Below are positions 3,679 through 63,096 of a DNA stretch of 64,000 nucleotides, one piece after another (position 1 is the stretch's first letter; every line of letters begins with the position of its first letter). The position numbers were made by a program, and so were the translations under genes. A model generated the notes under the pieces. It had not been told where the DNA came from. It saw only the letters and a list, made by a program, of their open reading frames with translations, and made no database searches. Location: contig JAHJQF010000001.1 in the NCBI GenBank assembly GCA_018819405.1, positions 907,377 through 971,376 on the forward strand, in the 5' to 3' direction. The DNA comes from Patescibacteria group bacterium. GTDB lineage: Bacteria; Patescibacteriota; Patescibacteriia; UBA1558; GWA2-36-10.

Positions 3679-3767
3679 TTTGTCATTGCGAGGATCCGCC
3701 AGCTGGCGGAGACGAAGCAATCTACAAGCTTTTAGATTGCCACGCCCTTCGGGCTCGCAATGACAAA
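3679..3767. repeat. 89-bp palindromic element with perfect 14-bp terminal inverted repeats (TTTGTCATTGCGAG / CTCGCAATGACAAA), abutting the GIY-YIG stop codon
   Basis: Terminal inverted repeats (TIRs) read directly. Inner CCGCCAGCTGGCGG hairpin. Conserved core AATCTACAAGCTTTTAGATT, shared with the repeats at 19981-20184. Confidence 0.7.
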
Positions 3768-3769
3768 TA

Positions 3770-4057
3770 TTACAATTTATTATATAAATTAGCCCAATTT
3801 TTATTATATTTTTCTATTAAATCAATCTTTTTCTGTCTTGACCCCGCTTTAATTTGCTTTTCTCTAGATATAGCTTCATAAGCATCTTCATATATTTCAT
3901 AATATACTAATTTATTGATACTATATCGTGATGTAAATGATTTATTATCTAGTTTTTCTTTATGTTGCCATACTCTAACAATTAAATCATTTGTTACTCC
4001 TGTATATAATGTACCCTGTTTATGATTAGCCAAAATATAAACAAAATATTGTCTCAT
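3770..4057 (-). CDS. GIY-YIG nuclease family protein (small, about 95 aa)
   Basis: YFVYILANHKQGTLYTGVTNDLIVRVWQHK = GIY...YIG motif. Confidence 0.8.
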   Translation of the reverse strand: MRQYFVYILANHKQGTLYTGVTNDLIVRVWQHKEKLDNKSFTSRYSINKLVYYEIYEDAYEAISREKQIKAGSRQKKIDLIEKYNKNWANLYNKL

Positions 4058-18598: not shown

Positions 18599-19972
18599 TT
18601 AGTAAAGTTCGTTATCAGTCACAGCCTGTTTGGGATCCAAAAGTGGATCTACCTTTATAGCCGAGGCTTGCAAATCAGTATTTATCTCCGGAGTTTGAGG
18701 CACATCATCTGATTTGGTTTCAGTCTCTGAGTCATTTTCATCTGTACTAGATGTGTTGTCATCACTTGTTTCAAGTAAATCTGCTCCCAAGATATTATTA
18801 TTATTTATGGCATCCTCAATTTCTTTTAATACCACTTCTGCTCTTTGATATTCTTCTTTTATTTGAGCAATCATTTCATAAGCATTGCGCAAAAATCCAT
18901 CTTCTAGCAAAGCTTTGGCCTCATCAAGTATCAAAGCTACTTCTTCTGAATTATTAATATCTAGCCTTTCCAGCTCACCACTAGCTTGATTGACAGCCAT
19001 ATTTTCTTTTTTCAAAGTGGAGCCATCTTCAGCTCCGGCTACCTCAGCCATTTGCTTTACAGTATCAACTTCTTGGCTAGTTTCATCTATTTCTGAAGCA
19101 ATTATTCCTTTGACTAAATTTTTGACTGATTCAGCATCTTTTTCACTGGTAGTATTATGATTGGTGTTGCCAACAAATTCACTGGTAGTAGTCTCATTGT
19201 TTATATTATTTTCAACATCAGTCTTGTCCTGCTCAGCATGACTAGCGGCCAATACTTCTTCGTGAACTTCCAGAGCTAGAGCAACCGCTTTGTCTTTGGA
19301 CACCTTATTGGCTGCTTGTGCACTATTGAGAGCATCGGAAATATTTTGGTCAGCTGAGGCAACTTCTTTTTTCTTTTTTAGATTGTTATCAACTTCTTTA
19401 CTAGCATCAGTGACTTTTTTTACCAATTCCACTACTTCTAGAGGTTTTTTTTCTTCTTTGGCTATTTTTAGTGAGCTATCAACTGCTACCACATCTTTGG
19501 TAAAATGAATCACAGCTTGTTTGATAGCTTTTTCTTGTTTTTCTGGAGTGCTATTTTCAGAGCCCAATATTTTATCAATTTCATTCAAACGCTCATTAAT
19601 ATGTTTGATATAGATTTCAGTTTCTTTGATTGGACTAAAAGTCAAAGTAATTTCGGCTTTTTCTATAGATCTCTTGATTGGCCAAAAAGCCTGACCTGGC
19701 ACAGAAGCCTGAGCAGTGTAGCTAACACCTGTACCCATCACTATGATCAAAAAAACCGCTACCGCTCTACTAAAAGAAGGAGCCAACTTATTTAAAAGTC
19801 TGGAAGCAAACAAATCCAGCTTTTCCTTGCGGTCCAGCTTTTGTGCCTGCATCAGTCTGTTTTGAGAAGCTATTTCTGACAACAGATCAAATTTGGTTGT
19901 GGACTCCCATCTCTTATCCGGTTGAATGGACTTGAGATTTCTAATGTGGGAGATTTTTTTAGTTAAACTCAT
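18599..19972 (-). CDS. membrane-anchored putative anti-sigma factor (DUF5667-like), acidic C-terminal tail
   Basis: 457 aa. Cytoplasmic N-terminus, single TM (AVAVFLIIVMGTGV), then a periplasmic domain. Sits immediately downstream of the ECF sigma gene. Confidence 0.4.
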   Translation of the reverse strand: MSLTKKISHIRNLKSIQPDKRWESTTKFDLLSEIASQNRLMQAQKLDRKEKLDLFASRLLNKLAPSFSRAVAVFLIIVMGTGVSYTAQASVPGQAFWPIKRSIEKAEITLTFSPIKETEIYIKHINERLNEIDKILGSENSTPEKQEKAIKQAVIHFTKDVVAVDSSLKIAKEEKKPLEVVELVKKVTDASKEVDNNLKKKKEVASADQNISDALNSAQAANKVSKDKAVALALEVHEEVLAASHAEQDKTDVENNINNETTTSEFVGNTNHNTTSEKDAESVKNLVKGIIASEIDETSQEVDTVKQMAEVAGAEDGSTLKKENMAVNQASGELERLDINNSEEVALILDEAKALLEDGFLRNAYEMIAQIKEEYQRAEVVLKEIEDAINNNNILGADLLETSDDNTSSTDENDSETETKSDDVPQTPEINTDLQASAIKVDPLLDPKQAVTDNELY

Positions 19973-19980
19973 AGTTTTTA

Positions 19981-20184
19981 TGCGCGATTATTTTATTCAC
20001 TCCTTGTCATTCCGGACTCGCTCCGGAATCTACAAACTTTTAGTTTCCCGCTTGCGCGAGAATGACGAGAAGAGGTTAGCGATTATTTTATGCACTCCTT
20101 GTCATTCCGGACTCGCTCCGGAATCTACAAACTTTTAGTTTCCCGCTTGCGCGAGAATGACGAGAAGAGGTTAGCGATTATTTT
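19981..20184. repeat. about 2.2 tandem copies of a 95-bp structured repeat (CACTCCTTGTCATTCCGGACTCGCTCCGGAATCTACAAACTTTTAGTTTCCCGCTTGCGCGAGAATGACGAGAAGAGGTTAGCGATTATTTT)
   Basis: Exact 95-bp period (19998 and 20093). Internal hairpins. Family member of the element at 3679-3767. Overlaps the last 4 codons of the sigma gene. Confidence 0.85.
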
Positions 20185-20755
20185 TTTCTTGGATAATTTG
20201 CTTTAGCTTGTTTAGAGCCCGATGTAGTGTCACCCTGATATTATTTTTGTCTTTCTGCATTACATCAGATATATCATCAATGGAAAGATCTTCTATATAT
20301 CTTAATATCAAGACTTCTTGATATTCAGGTTTTAGCTTGCGAATCTCTTGGAGTAGGACAGCAGCATCAATGGATTTGTCAACTTCAGTGGTGATACTTT
20401 TGCTCATATCAGCTAATTCACTAATATATTCTAGGGGTAATTCTTGACTATTAGATGCTCTATAATGATCAACTACTGAATTACGAGCTATTCTGAATAT
20501 AAAGGCCTGAAAACTTTTGATATTTTTTTTATCTACCAAATGTTGCCAGACTTTAAGGAAAACCTCTTGAGTCAAATCTTCAGCCAACTGTCTATTAGTT
20601 ACCTTTATATAGATAAATCTATATATGTTTTTTACGTATTTATCGTAAAAAAAACCGAAAGCCTCTGAGTCACCAGATTTGAGCCTTAAAAAAGCTATTT
20701 TTTCTTGTAAACTACTACGTAATGTCTTCATAGATATAGACGCAAAAATAGCCAA
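20171..20755 (-). CDS. ECF-type sigma-70 family RNA polymerase sigma factor
   Basis: Region 2 (YRFIYIKVTNRQLAEDLTQEVFLKVW) and region 4 (LILRYIEDLSIDDISDVM...VTLHRALNKL). Confidence 0.8.
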   Translation of the reverse strand: MAIFASISMKTLRSSLQEKIAFLRLKSGDSEAFGFFYDKYVKNIYRFIYIKVTNRQLAEDLTQEVFLKVWQHLVDKKNIKSFQAFIFRIARNSVVDHYRASNSQELPLEYISELADMSKSITTEVDKSIDAAVLLQEIRKLKPEYQEVLILRYIEDLSIDDISDVMQKDKNNIRVTLHRALNKLKQIIQEKNNR

Positions 20756-50785: not shown

Positions 50786-51085
50786 CTACCTGCTACTAGC
50801 GCAGGCCATGACGATCTTCTTGATCAGTCTCCTGACAGGGTGAGCCCTGATCAGCTCATCGCCGATGATCTGGTAGTGTCTTCCCTCACCATGAGGATCG
50901 AGATAGACCAGACGGGTCCGCGTATCCCAGATGGGCCAAGGTTGGCCTGCTCTGCGCAGACGACCGGTCGAGACATAGTCTCTTCCATCATAGCTCTGCT
51001 CTTCCACCAGTTCAACCGATGAAAAATTGTTGGGAAAAGGCACCCAACGGCGTCCGTCAATCGTCGCCCCAGCTTGTTTCGACAC
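50786..51085 (-). CDS. GC-rich (about 55%) hypothetical protein, about 100 aa, GTG start with SD GGAGG
   Basis: SD plus GTG. Own terminator. No recognisable domain. Confidence 0.4.
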   Translation of the reverse strand: MSKQAGATIDGRRWVPFPNNFSSVELVEEQSYDGRDYVSTGRLRRAGQPWPIWDTRTRLVYLDPHGEGRHYQIIGDELIRAHPVRRLIKKIVMACASSR

Positions 51086-51486
51086 AAGTAACCTCCAGTG
51101 TTTGTTTGGGCCAATATATGTGGCTGATAAAGCCACGGGATGAACAAAATATATTTTACAATACCACTCTTTGCAATTTTGGTCAATTATAAAAACCCCT
51201 GGCCTAAACTCGGGGTAAAAACAAAAAGGCGTTGTTATAGTTTGAAAAACTAATAAAACACCTTTTTGCTAGCCATTTTGTTGCATGAATTTGTGCCTTA
51301 GTAATTAATGACTATTGTAGCTTTGCTTTTTTATATGTATAACCCCTTTGTAAAAGGGTGGTGCTCGCAGACTAAAGGCCCCAGCCCAAGACAATATAAA
51401 GCACCAAGGCAATAATGTTGTAGAGTTACATATGTTAAAAAGAAGCTACATTTATAATATAACATCTTTTAAAAATCATTGCAAAA

Positions 51487-52672: not shown

Positions 52673-53167
52673 TTAGGCCGCCATCAGGCGGCCAGGCCTA
52701 TTGCCGGGCGGGACGTCTTCCCTGCCGCCGTAATGGCCGAGGATGGAGCTCTTGTTCATCGTCACCTGGTAGTAGTCCCAGATGGCATCACCGGCCGAAG
52801 CCGACACACACAGTGCGCTCAGTGAGCTGGGAATCTTGATATATACCGGATCCAGATTGCTGACGACGCTGGAGCTCTTGTAGTAGAGCCCAACGGCATC
52901 ACCGGCCGAAGCCGCCACACACAGTGCGCTCATGTTACAGGACTCGTTGATCTTCTTCAGGACGACGGTCGTAGTGTTCGCCGTCGTGTCCATGTGATTG
53001 GCGATCGCCACGGCGATGTCCGTGCCGTCGGTGACCGCATACCACAGGTCGTTCTTCGCGTAACTGACCTGGCTGGCCATCGCGCCGCAAGCAAGCAGCA
53101 TGATGACGGCCACCAGAGCCAGAGCGGCGCCCATCATCAGACGCGAGGGTCCACGAATGTGATGCAT
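52673..53167 (-). CDS. GC-rich (about 62%) lipoprotein with internal duplicated motif SALCV(A/S)ASAGDA(V/I)..YY
   Basis: Signal peptide and lipobox ALALVAVIMLLACGAMA. SD GGGAGGAAG. Confidence 0.55.
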   Translation of the reverse strand: MHHIRGPSRLMMGAALALVAVIMLLACGAMASQVSYAKNDLWYAVTDGTDIAVAIANHMDTTANTTTVVLKKINESCNMSALCVAASAGDAVGLYYKSSSVVSNLDPVYIKIPSSLSALCVSASAGDAIWDYYQVTMNKSSILGHYGGREDVPPGNRPGRLMAA

Positions 53168-53409: not shown

Positions 53410-53467
53410 GATAAAATCTATAAAAGAAAACCGGGCGAAACTCACTATGTGAAGCTTGTCTCGCCCG
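53410..53467 (-). terminator. cassette unit-1 terminator (CCGGGCGA..TCGCCCGG plus U-run)
   Basis: Direct read. Confidence 0.6.
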
Positions 53468-53661
53468 GTCAGGTGGTTGGCCCGAAGGCCACCGGATCGC
53501 TGTGCGATCATTTTTTGAGCCATTGGGCTCGAAGAAAAGAATATTGGGATTTTTGGAGATGGGCCTTGAGTCGCTTAAGTGCCCGGTCAGTTGGCCCGAT
53601 TACTCTGGCCGAGCTAAAGGTGGAATCGAAGCTTCATCGGCGACCTCGCTGGTCAGGCGGT

Positions 53662-53739
53662 TCATGCGGCCTTCGTGGCTGTACGGCGACGCAGCTCGGC
53701 GACGGTCTCCCTCGGGGGTCCAGTGTTTCGAATCTTCAT
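53662..53739 (-). CDS. 25-aa peptide MKIRNTGPPRETVAELRRRTATKAA (SD GGAAGGAG). Short-ORF family member
   Basis: SD 7 nt upstream. RBS region homologous to 49524-49545 and 54137-54160. Confidence 0.35.
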   Translation of the reverse strand: MKIRNTGPPRETVAELRRRTATKAA

Positions 53740-53876
53740 GATCAGACTCCTTCCTCGAGTCGCTTCAGAAAATTCCCGCCAAAATTAGCGGCATAGGAGA
53801 TGTGGCTCCTTCCAATATCGGCTGGGCTCCTGCCCTCCCCTATAGACCAACAGATCTAGCGAGAACGGCTGTTTTT

Positions 53877-53905
53877 ATGATACCAAGTGCCCTAAAATTA
53901 GTCAA
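53877..53905 (-). promoter_or_regulatory. sigma70 promoter TTGACT-17-TATCAT inside the conserved ATTGACTAATTT box
   Basis: Direct read. Confidence 0.55.
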
Positions 53906-53915
53906 TATAATAATC

Positions 53916-53969
53916 TAAACAAAAAAATACCGGACAAAACTCGCTCTTGGAGCTAAGTCTTGCCCGGCT
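53916..53969 (-). terminator. cassette unit-2 terminator (CCGGACAA..CTTGCCCGG plus U-run)
   Basis: Homologous to 53430-53467. Confidence 0.55.
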
Positions 53970-54091
53970 TGCATCGCTGTAGATAGTCTCACCTGACCCC
54001 AGGTAATATTCCCCTACGAGGGGATCGTGAGAGTTGACTGGTTCGTAAGCGAAGGTCATCCTCTCCAACTAACGCTGGGAACTTTAGGAAG

Positions 54092-54136
54092 TCAGGCGTT
54101 GTCCCCGATGGGACGTCCACGGATGCGGATAGCCAC
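54092..54136 (-). CDS. 14-aa peptide (GTG) MAIRIRGRPIGDNA (SD GAAAGGAG). Truncated paralog of 49416..49523
   Basis: 17/20-nt identity with the start of 49416..49523. Confidence 0.3.
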   Translation of the reverse strand: MAIRIRGRPIGDNA

Positions 54137-54204
54137 GATATGGCTCCTTTCGTCGAGTCACTTCATACGTCGTTCCCACCATTACTGGCAGGAGTGGCTC
54201 TCTT

Positions 54205-54233
54205 AAGATATCAATCGCTATTAAATTAGTCAA
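54205..54233 (-). promoter_or_regulatory. promoter TTGACT-17-TATCTT (ATTGACTAATTT box, second copy)
   Basis: Direct read. Confidence 0.4.
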
Positions 54234-54239
54234 TAAATT

Positions 54240-55037
54240 TTAAAAACTAAAACTAATAGTACCTAAGTCCTGAGTATTTTCTATTTCACACCCTACTTTT
54301 TTCAATCTTTCTATTGCTTCCTGATGCGGGTGGCCAAATTTATTGTCCAAGCCAGATTGAATAATACAAAATTCGGGCTGTACAGCCTGCAAAAACTCTA
54401 GTGATGAAGAATATTTACTACCATGATGGCCGACTTTTAGATACTGGGAATTTAAATCAAAACCACCGGACAATAACTTTTGTTCCCCTTCTATTGGCAA
54501 ATCTCCCATCAATAAAACATTTTTATCTTTATAGCTTAGTTTTATAACTACTGAGTTTTCATTGAAATCTTCATGCCAGTAGTCAGCTAAAAGAACCCTA
54601 AAATATAAATCATCGGAAAACATAAAACTCTCGCCTGCTTGTACAATTTGTGGTTGGATATTATTTTCTTGTAATTTTTGGGTAAAGATATTATACAAAA
54701 AATGATCGGGCTGGTGATTACTCACCAAAACATGTTTTACTTCGTACTTTTCTAAAAGCTCTACAAAACCCATCATATGATCATCATGCCAATGAGTAAT
54801 AATCAAATAATCAATCGTGTCCTCCCACCAAGGAAGTTTGTCGGCCATTTGGGACAAGAGCAGATTGTCCGGCCCGCCGTCTATCAAAATATTTTGACCA
54901 TCAGGAGTACGAATTAAAATTGCATCACCTTGCCCAACATCCAAAAAATTAATCGCTAGTTTATTTTCTATTCTATAAAAAGAAAAAAATAAAGCTGACA
55001 AAATTATTAGGGTTATAAAAAATATTGTTTTATTCAT
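54240..55037 (-). CDS. ComEC C-terminal metallo-beta-lactamase domain protein (separate ORF with N-terminal TM)
   Basis: THWHDDHMMG motif, GHHGSKYSS. Confidence 0.75.
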   Translation of the reverse strand: MNKTIFFITLIILSALFFSFYRIENKLAINFLDVGQGDAILIRTPDGQNILIDGGPDNLLLSQMADKLPWWEDTIDYLIITHWHDDHMMGFVELLEKYEVKHVLVSNHQPDHFLYNIFTQKLQENNIQPQIVQAGESFMFSDDLYFRVLLADYWHEDFNENSVVIKLSYKDKNVLLMGDLPIEGEQKLLSGGFDLNSQYLKVGHHGSKYSSSLEFLQAVQPEFCIIQSGLDNKFGHPHQEAIERLKKVGCEIENTQDLGTISFSF

Positions 55038-55069
55038 ATGTTTATATAAATTAACCCACTATACCAAAT

Positions 55070-55182
55070 TTATATTTGTCATCCTGAACTTGTTTCAGGA
55101 TCTCCGATTGGAGATGCCGAAATACCCGCCTGCCATGACTACTGTCAGGCATGTCGGGCAGGAATTCGGCATAACAAAAATA
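55070..55182. repeat. structured GC-richer element (TTTGTCATCC plus hairpin ATCCTGAActtgTTCAGGAT ...) immediately 3' of the second GIY-YIG gene
   Basis: Same architecture as 3679-3767. Confidence 0.5.
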
Positions 55183-55473
55183 TCACAAAAAATCATCGCT
55201 AATATCCTCCCATTTTTTATTAACCGATTCCACTAAATTGTTCTTCCAATCTCTATGCCAATTTTTTAATTGTTTTTCTCTACAAATAGCATCATGCATA
55301 TGCTGATATACCTCATAATAAACCAGCTTTATAACATTATATGGCTTAGTAAAACCAATAATATCTTTATTTTTGTGTTGTTTTATCCTATTTATTAAAT
55401 CGCCAGTGACACCAATATACATAACATTATTATTTTGATTAGTTAAAATATAAACATAATATTCTTTATTCAT
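55183..55473 (-). CDS. GIY-YIG nuclease family protein (paralog of 3770..4057)
   Basis: YYVYILTNQNNNVMYIGVTGDLINRIKQHK. Confidence 0.8.
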   Translation of the reverse strand: MNKEYYVYILTNQNNNVMYIGVTGDLINRIKQHKNKDIIGFTKPYNVIKLVYYEVYQHMHDAICREKQLKNWHRDWKNNLVESVNKKWEDISDDFL

Positions 55474-56782
55474 AATTTTGAGGCTTAATTATAAAAGTCA
55501 AAATAAACATAAAACAAAGAAAAAAAATCATATAAAAACTACTGAAATCTTGTACTTCAATATAAGCCCTGGGTAATTGGGAAAGATAAAAAGATAAGAC
55601 AACAATTATCTTTAAAATAATAAAAAGCGGCCAAGCTAATAATTTTGCCAAAAATGGCCAAAAACCAAACCCCGCTAAAAACAGACTAAATACCAAAACC
55701 AATGGCAAAAAGGGCAAAATCAAAAAATTAGCCAAGGGCGCTACAATTGACACAATACCAAAATAATAAACAATCAAAGGCCAGGTAAATATTTGAGCGG
55801 CTAGGGTCACAGACATTACTTCTCTCAACTTAAATTTTTGGGGTACAAAAAACAAAACTTTCTGGAAAAATTTTACATAATAAAGCAAACCCAAGACTGC
55901 CAAAAATGACAATTGAAAACCTATATCATATAAAAGTAAATATGGATTGAGTAAGACAAATATATCAGCAGCCAAAACAAGGCTATATATAGATTCTGTA
56001 TCCCTGCCCAAAAAAGGCCCTAACATTAATATAGATAGCATCAAACTGGCTCGAACTGCCGAAGCTGGAAATCCTATCAAATATAAATATAAAAATAATA
56101 TTAAAATTAAAAACCAAAAGGCTTTTTTTCTAGACAAACCAATAGCAAACAAAAAACTCCTGACTAGCCAAACTATAATAGCCATATGCAGTCCGGAAAT
56201 AGCTACCACATGACTCAGGCCCACTTGAGCAAAAATATTTCTGGTATCACCAGGTATTTCCCGACGACTGGCCAGAAGCATAGCCTTGGCTAGTGATGAA
56301 GCCGGCTCACGAAGATAAATGTCAAGATTTTTCCAAAAATAATTTTTGGCTTGAAAAATATAAAAAGAAATACCTTTATCTTGAGAAATATATTTTACCT
56401 TTGGACGAAAACAAGTAGCATATATATTGTCCTTGGCTAAATATTTATCATAAAAAAATGTTTTGCCTTCATCATCCTCTATTGGCTCTGGTTTGTAAAC
56501 TTTGCCTGATAGTTCTAAAACATCACCATAATAATACTCTGGATACAAAGGAATATAGACTAAAATATTTCCGGAAAAATTATCTAAATCCAAAGGCTCT
56601 ACTAATATATTCCAACCATCTATCTTTTTGTCGGTATTTATTACTTTAGCTTTAAAACTATAAAAATTATCAAAAATAAAACCGGGATTATTTTCCCGAT
56701 TGTCAAAATATAGCAACCAAACAAAATTGAGTGCCAAAAAAATAAAACTAACCCCTAAAAAGCCTTGGCTTTTGCTCATCAA
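55466..56782 (-). CDS. comEC: ComEC N-terminal (DUF4131/OB) plus competence membrane domain
   Basis: GLSHVVAISGLHMAII and SFLAV motifs. Stop overlaps the GIY-YIG start. Confidence 0.75.
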   Translation of the reverse strand: MMSKSQGFLGVSFIFLALNFVWLLYFDNRENNPGFIFDNFYSFKAKVINTDKKIDGWNILVEPLDLDNFSGNILVYIPLYPEYYYGDVLELSGKVYKPEPIEDDEGKTFFYDKYLAKDNIYATCFRPKVKYISQDKGISFYIFQAKNYFWKNLDIYLREPASSLAKAMLLASRREIPGDTRNIFAQVGLSHVVAISGLHMAIIVWLVRSFLFAIGLSRKKAFWFLILILFLYLYLIGFPASAVRASLMLSILMLGPFLGRDTESIYSLVLAADIFVLLNPYLLLYDIGFQLSFLAVLGLLYYVKFFQKVLFFVPQKFKLREVMSVTLAAQIFTWPLIVYYFGIVSIVAPLANFLILPFLPLVLVFSLFLAGFGFWPFLAKLLAWPLFIILKIIVVLSFYLSQLPRAYIEVQDFSSFYMIFFLCFMFILTFIIKPQNYE

Positions 56783-56903
56783 AATCGCTTAATTCTTCTG
56801 AACTATATTTAAACCTATTTTAAAAAATTTGTCAAAAATTAACCTGTGCCGGCCTCTTGACCCTAAGCTCGAGACCGAAGGGACATAGACCGAGAAATCA
56901 AAA

Positions 56904-62810: not shown

Positions 62811-63096
62811 GCCATCTACCTCCTTGAAAAGAACAAACTTTGAAACTATCAAAAAAACTCTCACTAAGGAGAGTGGTGACAAAATTATTAAGCTTTAATA
62901 AATTCATCCTTTTGCTCCTTAGGCAAAGAATAAAACTCAGGTGTCGGACTTGTTCTCCCTACATTGGAGACTTACCGTAGCTAGGACTGCGGAGGATTTG
63001 CACCTCACTTCCCTGATTGAATTGTCAAAGTGAATTTATCTTAACACAGAGTAAAACGATTGACAACTGTCTGTGACCTTATACATTGTTGATAAG

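Follow-up and report, generated by a model that had tools for sequence, protein, structure and literature searches.

A candidate Ssn-SRM cassette at the gene overlap of a two-gene comEC operon in a Patescibacteria genome

In many bacteria all three domains of ComEC, the DNA-uptake channel, are joined in one polypeptide (PMC6299819). In a 64,000-nt stretch of a Patescibacteria genome (the window), whose open reading frames (ORFs) were profiled with Pfam, NCBIfam and Rfam, the ComEC domains are found instead in the outer two of three consecutive ORFs, all on the minus strand, and between them lie a small GIY-YIG nuclease gene and a hairpin-rich tail. Has a mobile element broken comEC here, as a sequence-only reading of the locus had proposed, either inactivating the gene or creating a functional split one? 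Here we report that the locus is very probably an ancestral two-gene comEC operon of Patescibacteria, with a 436-bp cassette placed at the 8-nt stop/start overlap of its two genes. The cassette appears to consist of a nuclease gene of the Ssn family (ssn) and two Ssn-related motifs (SRMs), and an attractive but wrong view of comEC as broken is thereby corrected.

ComEC as the product of two overlapping genes

The three ORFs described in the sequence-only reading were all recovered, with Competence, GIY-YIG and Lactamase_B domains, respectively, in Pfam. The first (comEC-N, 55466..56782) matches Competence at E=2.5e-52 and TIGR00360 at E=2e-28, and its DUF4131 match of 28.8 bits lies under the 31.6-bit cutoff. 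Its true start is probably the ATG at 56779 and not the TTG at 56782, because the database protein that matches it at 100% (P0001, 'ComEC family competence protein [Patescibacteria group bacterium]') has 437 aa. The last ORF encodes a ComEC-type metallo-beta-lactamase (MBL) domain, with matches to Lactamase_B (E=2.6e-18) and to the C-terminal part of TIGR00361 (E=9e-38).

A three-domain ComEC/Rec2 (TIGR00361) in one polypeptide was not found at this locus: OB/DUF4131, Competence and Lactamase_B are spread over two ORFs that score 79 and 130 bits, each under the 190-bit cutoff. The outer ORFs fall on consecutive stretches of the ComEC models, so that no ComEC segment is missing. Of the 663 positions of TIGR00361, comEC-N covers 128-345 and the MBL ORF 423-661; in PRK11539, 204-461 corresponds to residues 166-418 of the 438-aa N ORF and 483-728 to the MBL ORF from residue 7, which leaves no gap at the junction. 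These alignments show that the insertion cost ComEC no residue.

We compared the locus with 80 Patescibacteria comEC loci from a scan of species-representative genomes. An uninterrupted comEC was sought among them, and the channel ORF is fused to an MBL domain in none; a separate MBL ORF, orthologous to that of the window, comes next on the same strand in 46, and in 36 of these 46 it lies within ~100 nt or overlaps. Among the best 120 homologues of comEC-N, with identities as low as 38%, nearly every one is 420-510 aa in length, and they have DUF4131 and/or Competence domains only. In the Patescibacteria sampled, two-gene ComEC is the norm, and these comparisons indicate that the split is ancestral. 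ComEC without a lactamase domain is a known and common profile, and the channel gene of the window has exactly the 'DC' profile (DUF4131 and Competence, no Lactamase_B) described by Pimentel and Zhang in 2018 (PMC6299819). In contrast to that profile, the MBL domain is not lost here; an adjacent, overlapping gene encodes it together with a membrane anchor.

The closest relatives (loci L003, L005, L007 and L082) carry no GIY-YIG gene, and in all four the upstream stop and the MBL ATG share the identical 8-nt overlap (ATGAATAA). The empty junction reads ...CAAAATTATGAATAAATTT..., with the sequence TATGAATAAA common to L003, L004, L005, L007, L011 and L082. The nearest relative is L082, whose ComEC-N is 76% identical and whose synteny with the window extends from a release-factor gene to response-regulator and NDK genes; its comEC-N/MBL junction, present without a GIY-YIG gene, is an empty site. 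Between the window and L082 the proportion of nonsynonymous differences (pN) is 0.16-0.19 for both comEC genes and that of synonymous differences (pS) 0.60-0.64, and both genes are still under purifying selection.

That a mobile GIY-YIG element divided a once intact three-domain comEC, thereby inactivating it or making it a split gene, is almost certainly wrong. ComEC is a single polypeptide in many bacteria and the cassette does lie between both of its parts, but the split is present in all 80 relatives and without any GIY-YIG gene, close relatives share the identical 8-nt overlap, both halves are conserved, and the hidden Markov models show no gap. This interpretation was discarded as refuted by the empty, already split junctions. 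The sequence-only reading had itself allowed that a two-ORF ComEC without a GIY-YIG gene in related genomes would indicate an ancestral split, and L082 is one such genome. The N-terminal Met and hydrophobic segment of the MBL ORF, on which it had based a possible functional split, are ancestral and do not result from the insertion. What survives of its proposal is the insertion of a discrete GIY-YIG/hairpin element, for which L082 supplies the empty site, and the 8-nt overlap of the nuclease ATG with the upstream stop, which we confirmed from the sequence.

The nuclease and its hairpin repeats

A system of this composition has recently been described under the name Ssn-SRM (Chenal et al., Nat Commun 2025, PMC11893778). 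In Neisseria meningitidis the nuclease SsnA, 94 aa long with a single GIY-YIG domain (cd10448), binds the hairpin repeat NTS (CGTCATTCCCGCGMAVGCGGGAATCYRG) only as single-stranded DNA (ssDNA), its cut falling a few nucleotides upstream of NTS; it neither binds nor cuts double-stranded DNA (dsDNA), does not bind RNA, and reduces transformation by NTS-bearing DNA (PMC11893778). SRMs are found near 71% of SsnA homologues (PMC11893778).

The 96-aa ssn product of the window matches GIY-YIG (PF01541) over residues 5-78 (E=1.1e-17) and contains no other domain. By tblastn it finds, at E=8e-22, a 94-aa ORF of Neisseria gonorrhoeae that has Y6, Y17 and E64 and seven exact NTS repeats at most 1.5 kb away; an ungapped pairwise alignment of the two proteins has 46 of 90 residues identical (51%). 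The Ssn paper sets its homology criterion at tblastn E<1e-10, and the comparison here is with the gonococcal protein and not with NMV_0044 itself. Across 21 aligned sequences Y8, Y19 and E66 of the window protein do not vary, and they align with gonococcal Y6, Y17 and E64, the equivalents of which were mutated in the SsnA study (PMC11893778). The only PDB sequence match is the UPF0213 protein 1zg2 (E=0.0025). We assign the nuclease of the cassette to the Ssn family on this evidence, and its gene, with a dN/dS of 0.08-0.17, is under strong purifying selection.

The gonococcal locus was found in PLSDB, in a chromosome filed as a plasmid. Two 2.17-Mb N. gonorrhoeae records of this plasmid collection, NZ_CP119140.1 (L171) and NZ_CP119142.1, are evidently chromosomes, and the ssnA-like ORF is unannotated there. 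A large protein search seeded with an NTS-flanked homologue and aimed at Neisseria SsnA returned environmental proteins only.

Free-standing GIY-YIG homing endonucleases such as T4 Seg and I-TevI resemble the window protein in their catalytic domain, in insertion between genes and in patchy presence at one site. An enzyme of this kind would cleave the comEC-N/MBL junction where it is empty and double-stranded, and its gene would be copied into the break by repair; this would account for one insertion point in four lineages: the position is identical in the window, L085, L086 and L167, and near relatives are empty. Those enzymes, however, have a long DNA-binding domain and cut dsDNA, whereas the window protein is a bare domain of 96 aa, in which the combination of GIY-YIG with a C-terminal DNA-binding domain, in ~200 aa or more, was not found. 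It scores 20.9 bits against TIGR01453 (GIY-YIG homing endonuclease), for which the cutoff is 56, and the characterised homologue has no activity on dsDNA (PMC11893778). Relatives 65-70% identical lie in unrelated contexts, either after a dUTPase gene or between glycosyltransferase genes, and the comEC flanks show no co-conversion, the flank of the window being nearest to that of the empty L082. We rejected homing on protein size, TIGR01453 score and the published absence of dsDNA activity, and consider it very unlikely.

The hairpin-rich tail noted in the sequence-only reading is real. The 104-nt stretch 55075-55178 forms a multi-hairpin structure that folds far better than shuffles, with z=-4.4 as RNA and, as ssDNA, z=-7.65 for the minus and -6.47 for the plus strand. 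It contains two modules, SRM-a and SRM-b (Table 1), in inverted orientation and closed by TTTGTTAT/ATGACAAA (55075-55178); a simple form of SRM-a, TGTCATGCCGAATTTATTTCGGCATCTCC, is present in L085 and L086. The Ssn-SRM system is recognized by a gene accompanied by 20-50-nt hairpin-forming inverted repeats, and two inverted modules of the form GT(C/T)AT + palindrome + ATCTCC do lie downstream of ssn, as they do downstream of a second ssn gene in the window. To judge from this match, the tail is an inverted SRM doublet, an arrangement that would give each DNA strand one correctly oriented SRM.

The tail could also be thought of as a functional RNA element, serving as terminator, stabiliser or ribozyme or guiding the nuclease, consistent with its RNA folding and its location in the 3' untranslated region of ssn. 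Against this, Rfam scans of the tail, by gathering score and by E-value, returned no family; no T-run follows the stems, both strands fold equally as DNA, and the same modules occur in reverse orientation upstream of ssn genes as well as without any gene. SsnA, moreover, does not bind RNA (PMC11893778). An RNA function of the tail is highly improbable in light of these points, and this possibility was dropped in view of the folding of both strands and the match to SRMs. A scan for promoters and terminators around the tail gave no signal above chance.

Additional support for an SRM doublet comes from 80 metagenomic relatives of ssn (49-64% identical), many of which are flanked by inverted modules, TGTCAT-hairpin-ATCTC upstream and GAGAT-hairpin-ATGACA downstream. 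With strict detection of perfect stems in 65 complete ssn loci, at least one module was found in 35, modules on both sides in 13, and a downstream doublet only, as in the window, in 8. Near-exact NTS repeats were found in three relatives (L114, L117 and L143). In place of the published SRM string a looser pattern, GTCAT + palindrome + ATC, was scanned for; it yields 2.6 chance matches per shuffle, and only GC-rich matches were accepted.

The likeness to SsnA and NTS thus comprises a single-domain GIY-YIG protein of ~95 aa with the same catalytic Tyr/Tyr/Glu, adjacent inverted hairpin repeats of the form GTCAT + palindrome + ATC, and gene-less copies elsewhere in the genome. Four differences from the published system stand out: the host belongs to the Patescibacteria, which are not mentioned in PMC11893778; the repeats do not flank the gene but are paired as a doublet downstream of it; the hairpins (GCCGAA and CCTGAA types) miss the published degenerate string; and ssn overlaps comEC-N, with empty and filled sites that can be compared. 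RAYT and REP-BIME (REPIN) elements also pair a small nuclease gene with inverted palindromic repeats that occur without the gene, and their recognition is thought to proceed via single-strand hairpins. RAYTs differ in being relatives of HUH/Y1 transposases and not GIY-YIG proteins, with no sequence relationship; the analogy has already been drawn for Ssn-SRM (PMC11893778).

Gain, loss and possible function of the cassette

Alignment with empty sites delimits the insert as 436 bp, comprising ssn and an inverted pair of SRM hairpins. It opens with the nine bases ATGAATAAA, with which the MBL gene opens too. Since this 9-mer stands at both ends, comEC-N retains its stop (Y-E-stop), ssn takes the overlapping start and the MBL gene retains its own ATG, 436 bp further on. 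A 9-bp direct repeat bounds the insert in the region where the sequence-only reading had suggested looking for a target-site duplication; as many ssn genes natively start with ATGAATAAA or ATGGATAAA, however, this repeat may be microhomology. Insertion sequences and MITE-like elements are known by terminal inverted repeats, target-site duplication and filled versus empty sites; here filled and empty sites are present, and repeats of 9-15 bp in direct orientation, possible target duplications, occur at three inserts. In a survey of 46 SRM doublets a repeat of at least 8 nt was found in 30% versus 11% of controls, an excess driven by repeat arrays.

Three of the closest Ssn homologues, P0122 (74% identical), P0125 (73%) and P0123 (69%), are encoded directly after comEC-N at the same nucleotide position. 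The junction is filled in the window, L085, L086 and L167 and empty in L082 and L007, and the hosts form three ComEC-N groups: the window goes with the empty L082 (76% identity), L086 and L167 (86% identical to each other) go with the empty L007 (79%), and L085 stands alone. In L167 comEC-N and ssn are separated by an additional SRM doublet with TATGAATAA repeats at its bounds, and the downstream doublet there is flipped relative to that of the window. The right junctions of L085, L086 and L167 are outside view, as their contigs end inside SRMs.

Independent assemblies of L001, L085, L086 and L167 all break inside the SRM doublet right after ssn, consistent with hairpin modules repeated within these samples.

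Elsewhere in the window, the second ssn gene (3770-4057) is wedged between two GT4 glycosyltransferase genes, and its GC-rich doublet is closed by TGTCATTGCGAG...CTCGCAATGACA. In L169/L170 and L136 an ssn gene is found at the same position upstream of the orthologous glycosyltransferase. Two gene-less doublets are placed in tandem between ORFs 18599..19972 and 20171..20755; in each, a 15-bp direct repeat (GCGATTATTTTATNC) comes before an inverted SRM pair of 80 bp, and the repeat occurs a third time after the second unit. Taken together, these comparisons show the cassette behaving as a unit of gain and loss, with units apparently gained, lost and duplicated.

The cassette might instead be old, vertically inherited and domesticated in the competence operon, with several precise losses, through recombination between the two ATGAATAAA copies, in place of repeated insertions. 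Such a history fits the strong purifying selection on ssn, the 9-bp repeats would permit exact deletion, and the junction copies of ssn group together (69-76% identical, with pS lower among themselves than to L168). It would nevertheless require at least 3-4 independent precise losses, and both the different orientation of the L167 doublet and the extra doublet there speak against it. Timing cannot be used to test it: pS is 0.56-0.67 even for the closest hosts and is saturated, which makes synonymous dating of gain versus loss uninformative and leaves repeated insertion inseparable from one old insertion followed by precise losses, and an identity floor of ~60% in the Ssn family makes protein identity equally uninformative. 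We regard this history as unlikely, though a serious contender.

In the model we favour, a cassette inserted into a two-gene comEC operon, ComEC would ancestrally be encoded by two overlapping genes, one for the OB region and channel and one for a membrane-anchored MBL nuclease, with ssn followed by its two inverted SRM hairpins placed exactly at their 8-nt overlap. Having taken over the overlapping start, ssn would probably be translationally coupled to comEC-N. By homology with Neisseria SsnA, its 96-aa product is predicted to bind the cognate SRM hairpin only in ssDNA and to cut a few nucleotides 5' of the SRM, that is, to cleave SRM-bearing ssDNA. It may also, with less assurance, act on strands imported by ComEC: since it would be co-expressed with the DNA-uptake channel, it could cut incoming SRM-bearing single strands as SsnA does in meningococcal transformation.

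Several observations weigh against parts of this model. SRM-a starts with GTTAT and not GTCAT, and the published SRM string, HGTCWYN(0-2)YYVSBRHN(0-5)WNVSBRGN(0-2)RNCYNB, has 0 matches in the window and 14 in 278 kb of ssn loci; as that string was built from 29 genomes of 4 phyla (PMC11893778), we read the miss as a limit of the string and not of the architecture. Strong hairpins now lie between the MBL gene and its former coupled start, and with no promoter evident at the tail, the MBL gene may be expressed differently. Of the 80 other metagenomic ssn loci none adjoins comEC, which, together with the unrelated contexts of the 65-70% identical relatives, means that the link to competence may be positional chance.

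We also considered a broader proposal, in which ssn-SRM cassettes and gene-less doublets are mobile, a GIY-YIG counterpart of RAYT/REPIN, inserting just upstream of start codons in tight operons with duplications of 9-15 bp, and in which the nuclease was recruited to the comEC operon in this group of Patescibacteria and acts on single strands entering through the channel. As a whole this is speculative, and we would not expect all of it to hold.

With this cassette the Ssn/SRM ssDNA-nuclease system, described only recently, extends to the candidate phyla radiation. Filled and empty sites of an ssn-SRM cassette can also be compared here as natural examples, where PMC11893778 had only speculated on a nature like that of insertion sequences; this adds modest evidence from nature that such cassettes are gained and lost. 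The operon link of ssn to competence is suggestive: its overlap with comEC-N, and the probable translational coupling, form a gene-neighbourhood hint that fits the action of Neisseria SsnA on transforming ssDNA. Natural transformation of Saccharibacteria, the cultivated Patescibacteria tested, is mediated by ComEC (PMC10633639), and this hint could guide experiments in transformable Saccharibacteria.

Feature coordinates and neighbouring sequences

Table 1. Features assigned in the window, from the comEC promoter-like motif through the cassette to the MBL gene, followed by SRM-bearing loci elsewhere.
Feature	Position	Strand	Basis
Promoter-like TTGACA-17 nt-TTAAAT, upstream of comEC-N	56807..56835	-	Position and sequence kept in relatives
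comEC-N: OB/DUF4131 region and competence membrane channel domain, 437 aa	55466..56779	-	Pfam, TIGR00360, P0001
ssn: 96-aa single-domain GIY-YIG nuclease, assigned to the Ssn family	55183..55473	-	PF01541, gonococcal homology, invariant residues
Left copy of ATGAATAAA: ssn start codon and comEC-N stop (TAA) in the 8-nt overlap	55465..55473	-	Empty-site alignment
SRM-a (candidate): TGTTAT-GCCGAA..TTCGGC-ATCTCC, forward on the minus strand; further hairpin 55125-55162 nested in the loop	55110..55176	-	
SRM-b (candidate): TGTCAT-CCTGAACTTGTTTCAGG-ATCTCC, forward on the plus strand	55077..55105	+	
AT-rich 39-nt spacer from the doublet to the MBL start (right part of the insert)	55038..55076	-	Absent from the L082 empty site
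Right copy of ATGAATAAA: start of the MBL gene	55029..55037	-	Empty-site alignment
Separate ComEC-type MBL gene, 265 aa, N-terminal hydrophobic anchor, HWHDDH motif	54240..55037	-	Lactamase_B, TIGR00361, orthologues
Second ssn, 95 aa, 48% identical (tblastn), with downstream inverted SRM doublet	3681..4057 (gene 3770-4057, doublet 3681-3765)	-	
Gene-less SRM doublets: two 95-bp units, 99% identical, tandem	19984..20188	+	

The TTGACA-17-TTAAAT motif is also found upstream of comEC-N in L082, L085, L086, L007 and L003, as a consensus match only. A 53-nt GC-rich insert at 56843-56895 (minus strand), just upstream of this motif, has no counterpart in L082 and does not resemble SRMs.

Downstream of the MBL gene, 53420-54233 (minus strand) holds two tandem units, each composed of a promoter-like motif, a GC-rich, strongly folding stretch and a hairpin with a T-run. 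The promoter-like motifs (TTGACT-17-TATCNT) lie at 54233-54205 and 53905-53877 and the hairpins with T-runs at 53942-53920 and 53441-53420; 906 nt jointly fold with z=-7.0. The blocks are 77-78% identical to L082 and match no Rfam family even at E<=10, and they are possibly unknown structured small RNAs.

Further along the same strand, a 164-aa ORF (52673-53167) has ~60% GC in a genome of 36% GC and a signal-peptide-like N-terminus, with no Pfam match. In L082, L007 and L014 the MBL gene is likewise followed by a similar ORF on the same strand, and an opposite-strand gene call at the L082 counterpart is probably spurious. A 116-aa ORF at 50786-51136 (minus strand), also GC-rich (~55%) in this AT-rich genome, has promoter-like and terminator-like signals of its own.

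No tRNA genes were found within the 64 kb of the window. The sole Rfam match in the window is a cobalamin riboswitch aptamer at 62919-63050 (minus strand), which scores 35.5 bits against a gathering score of 31.5.

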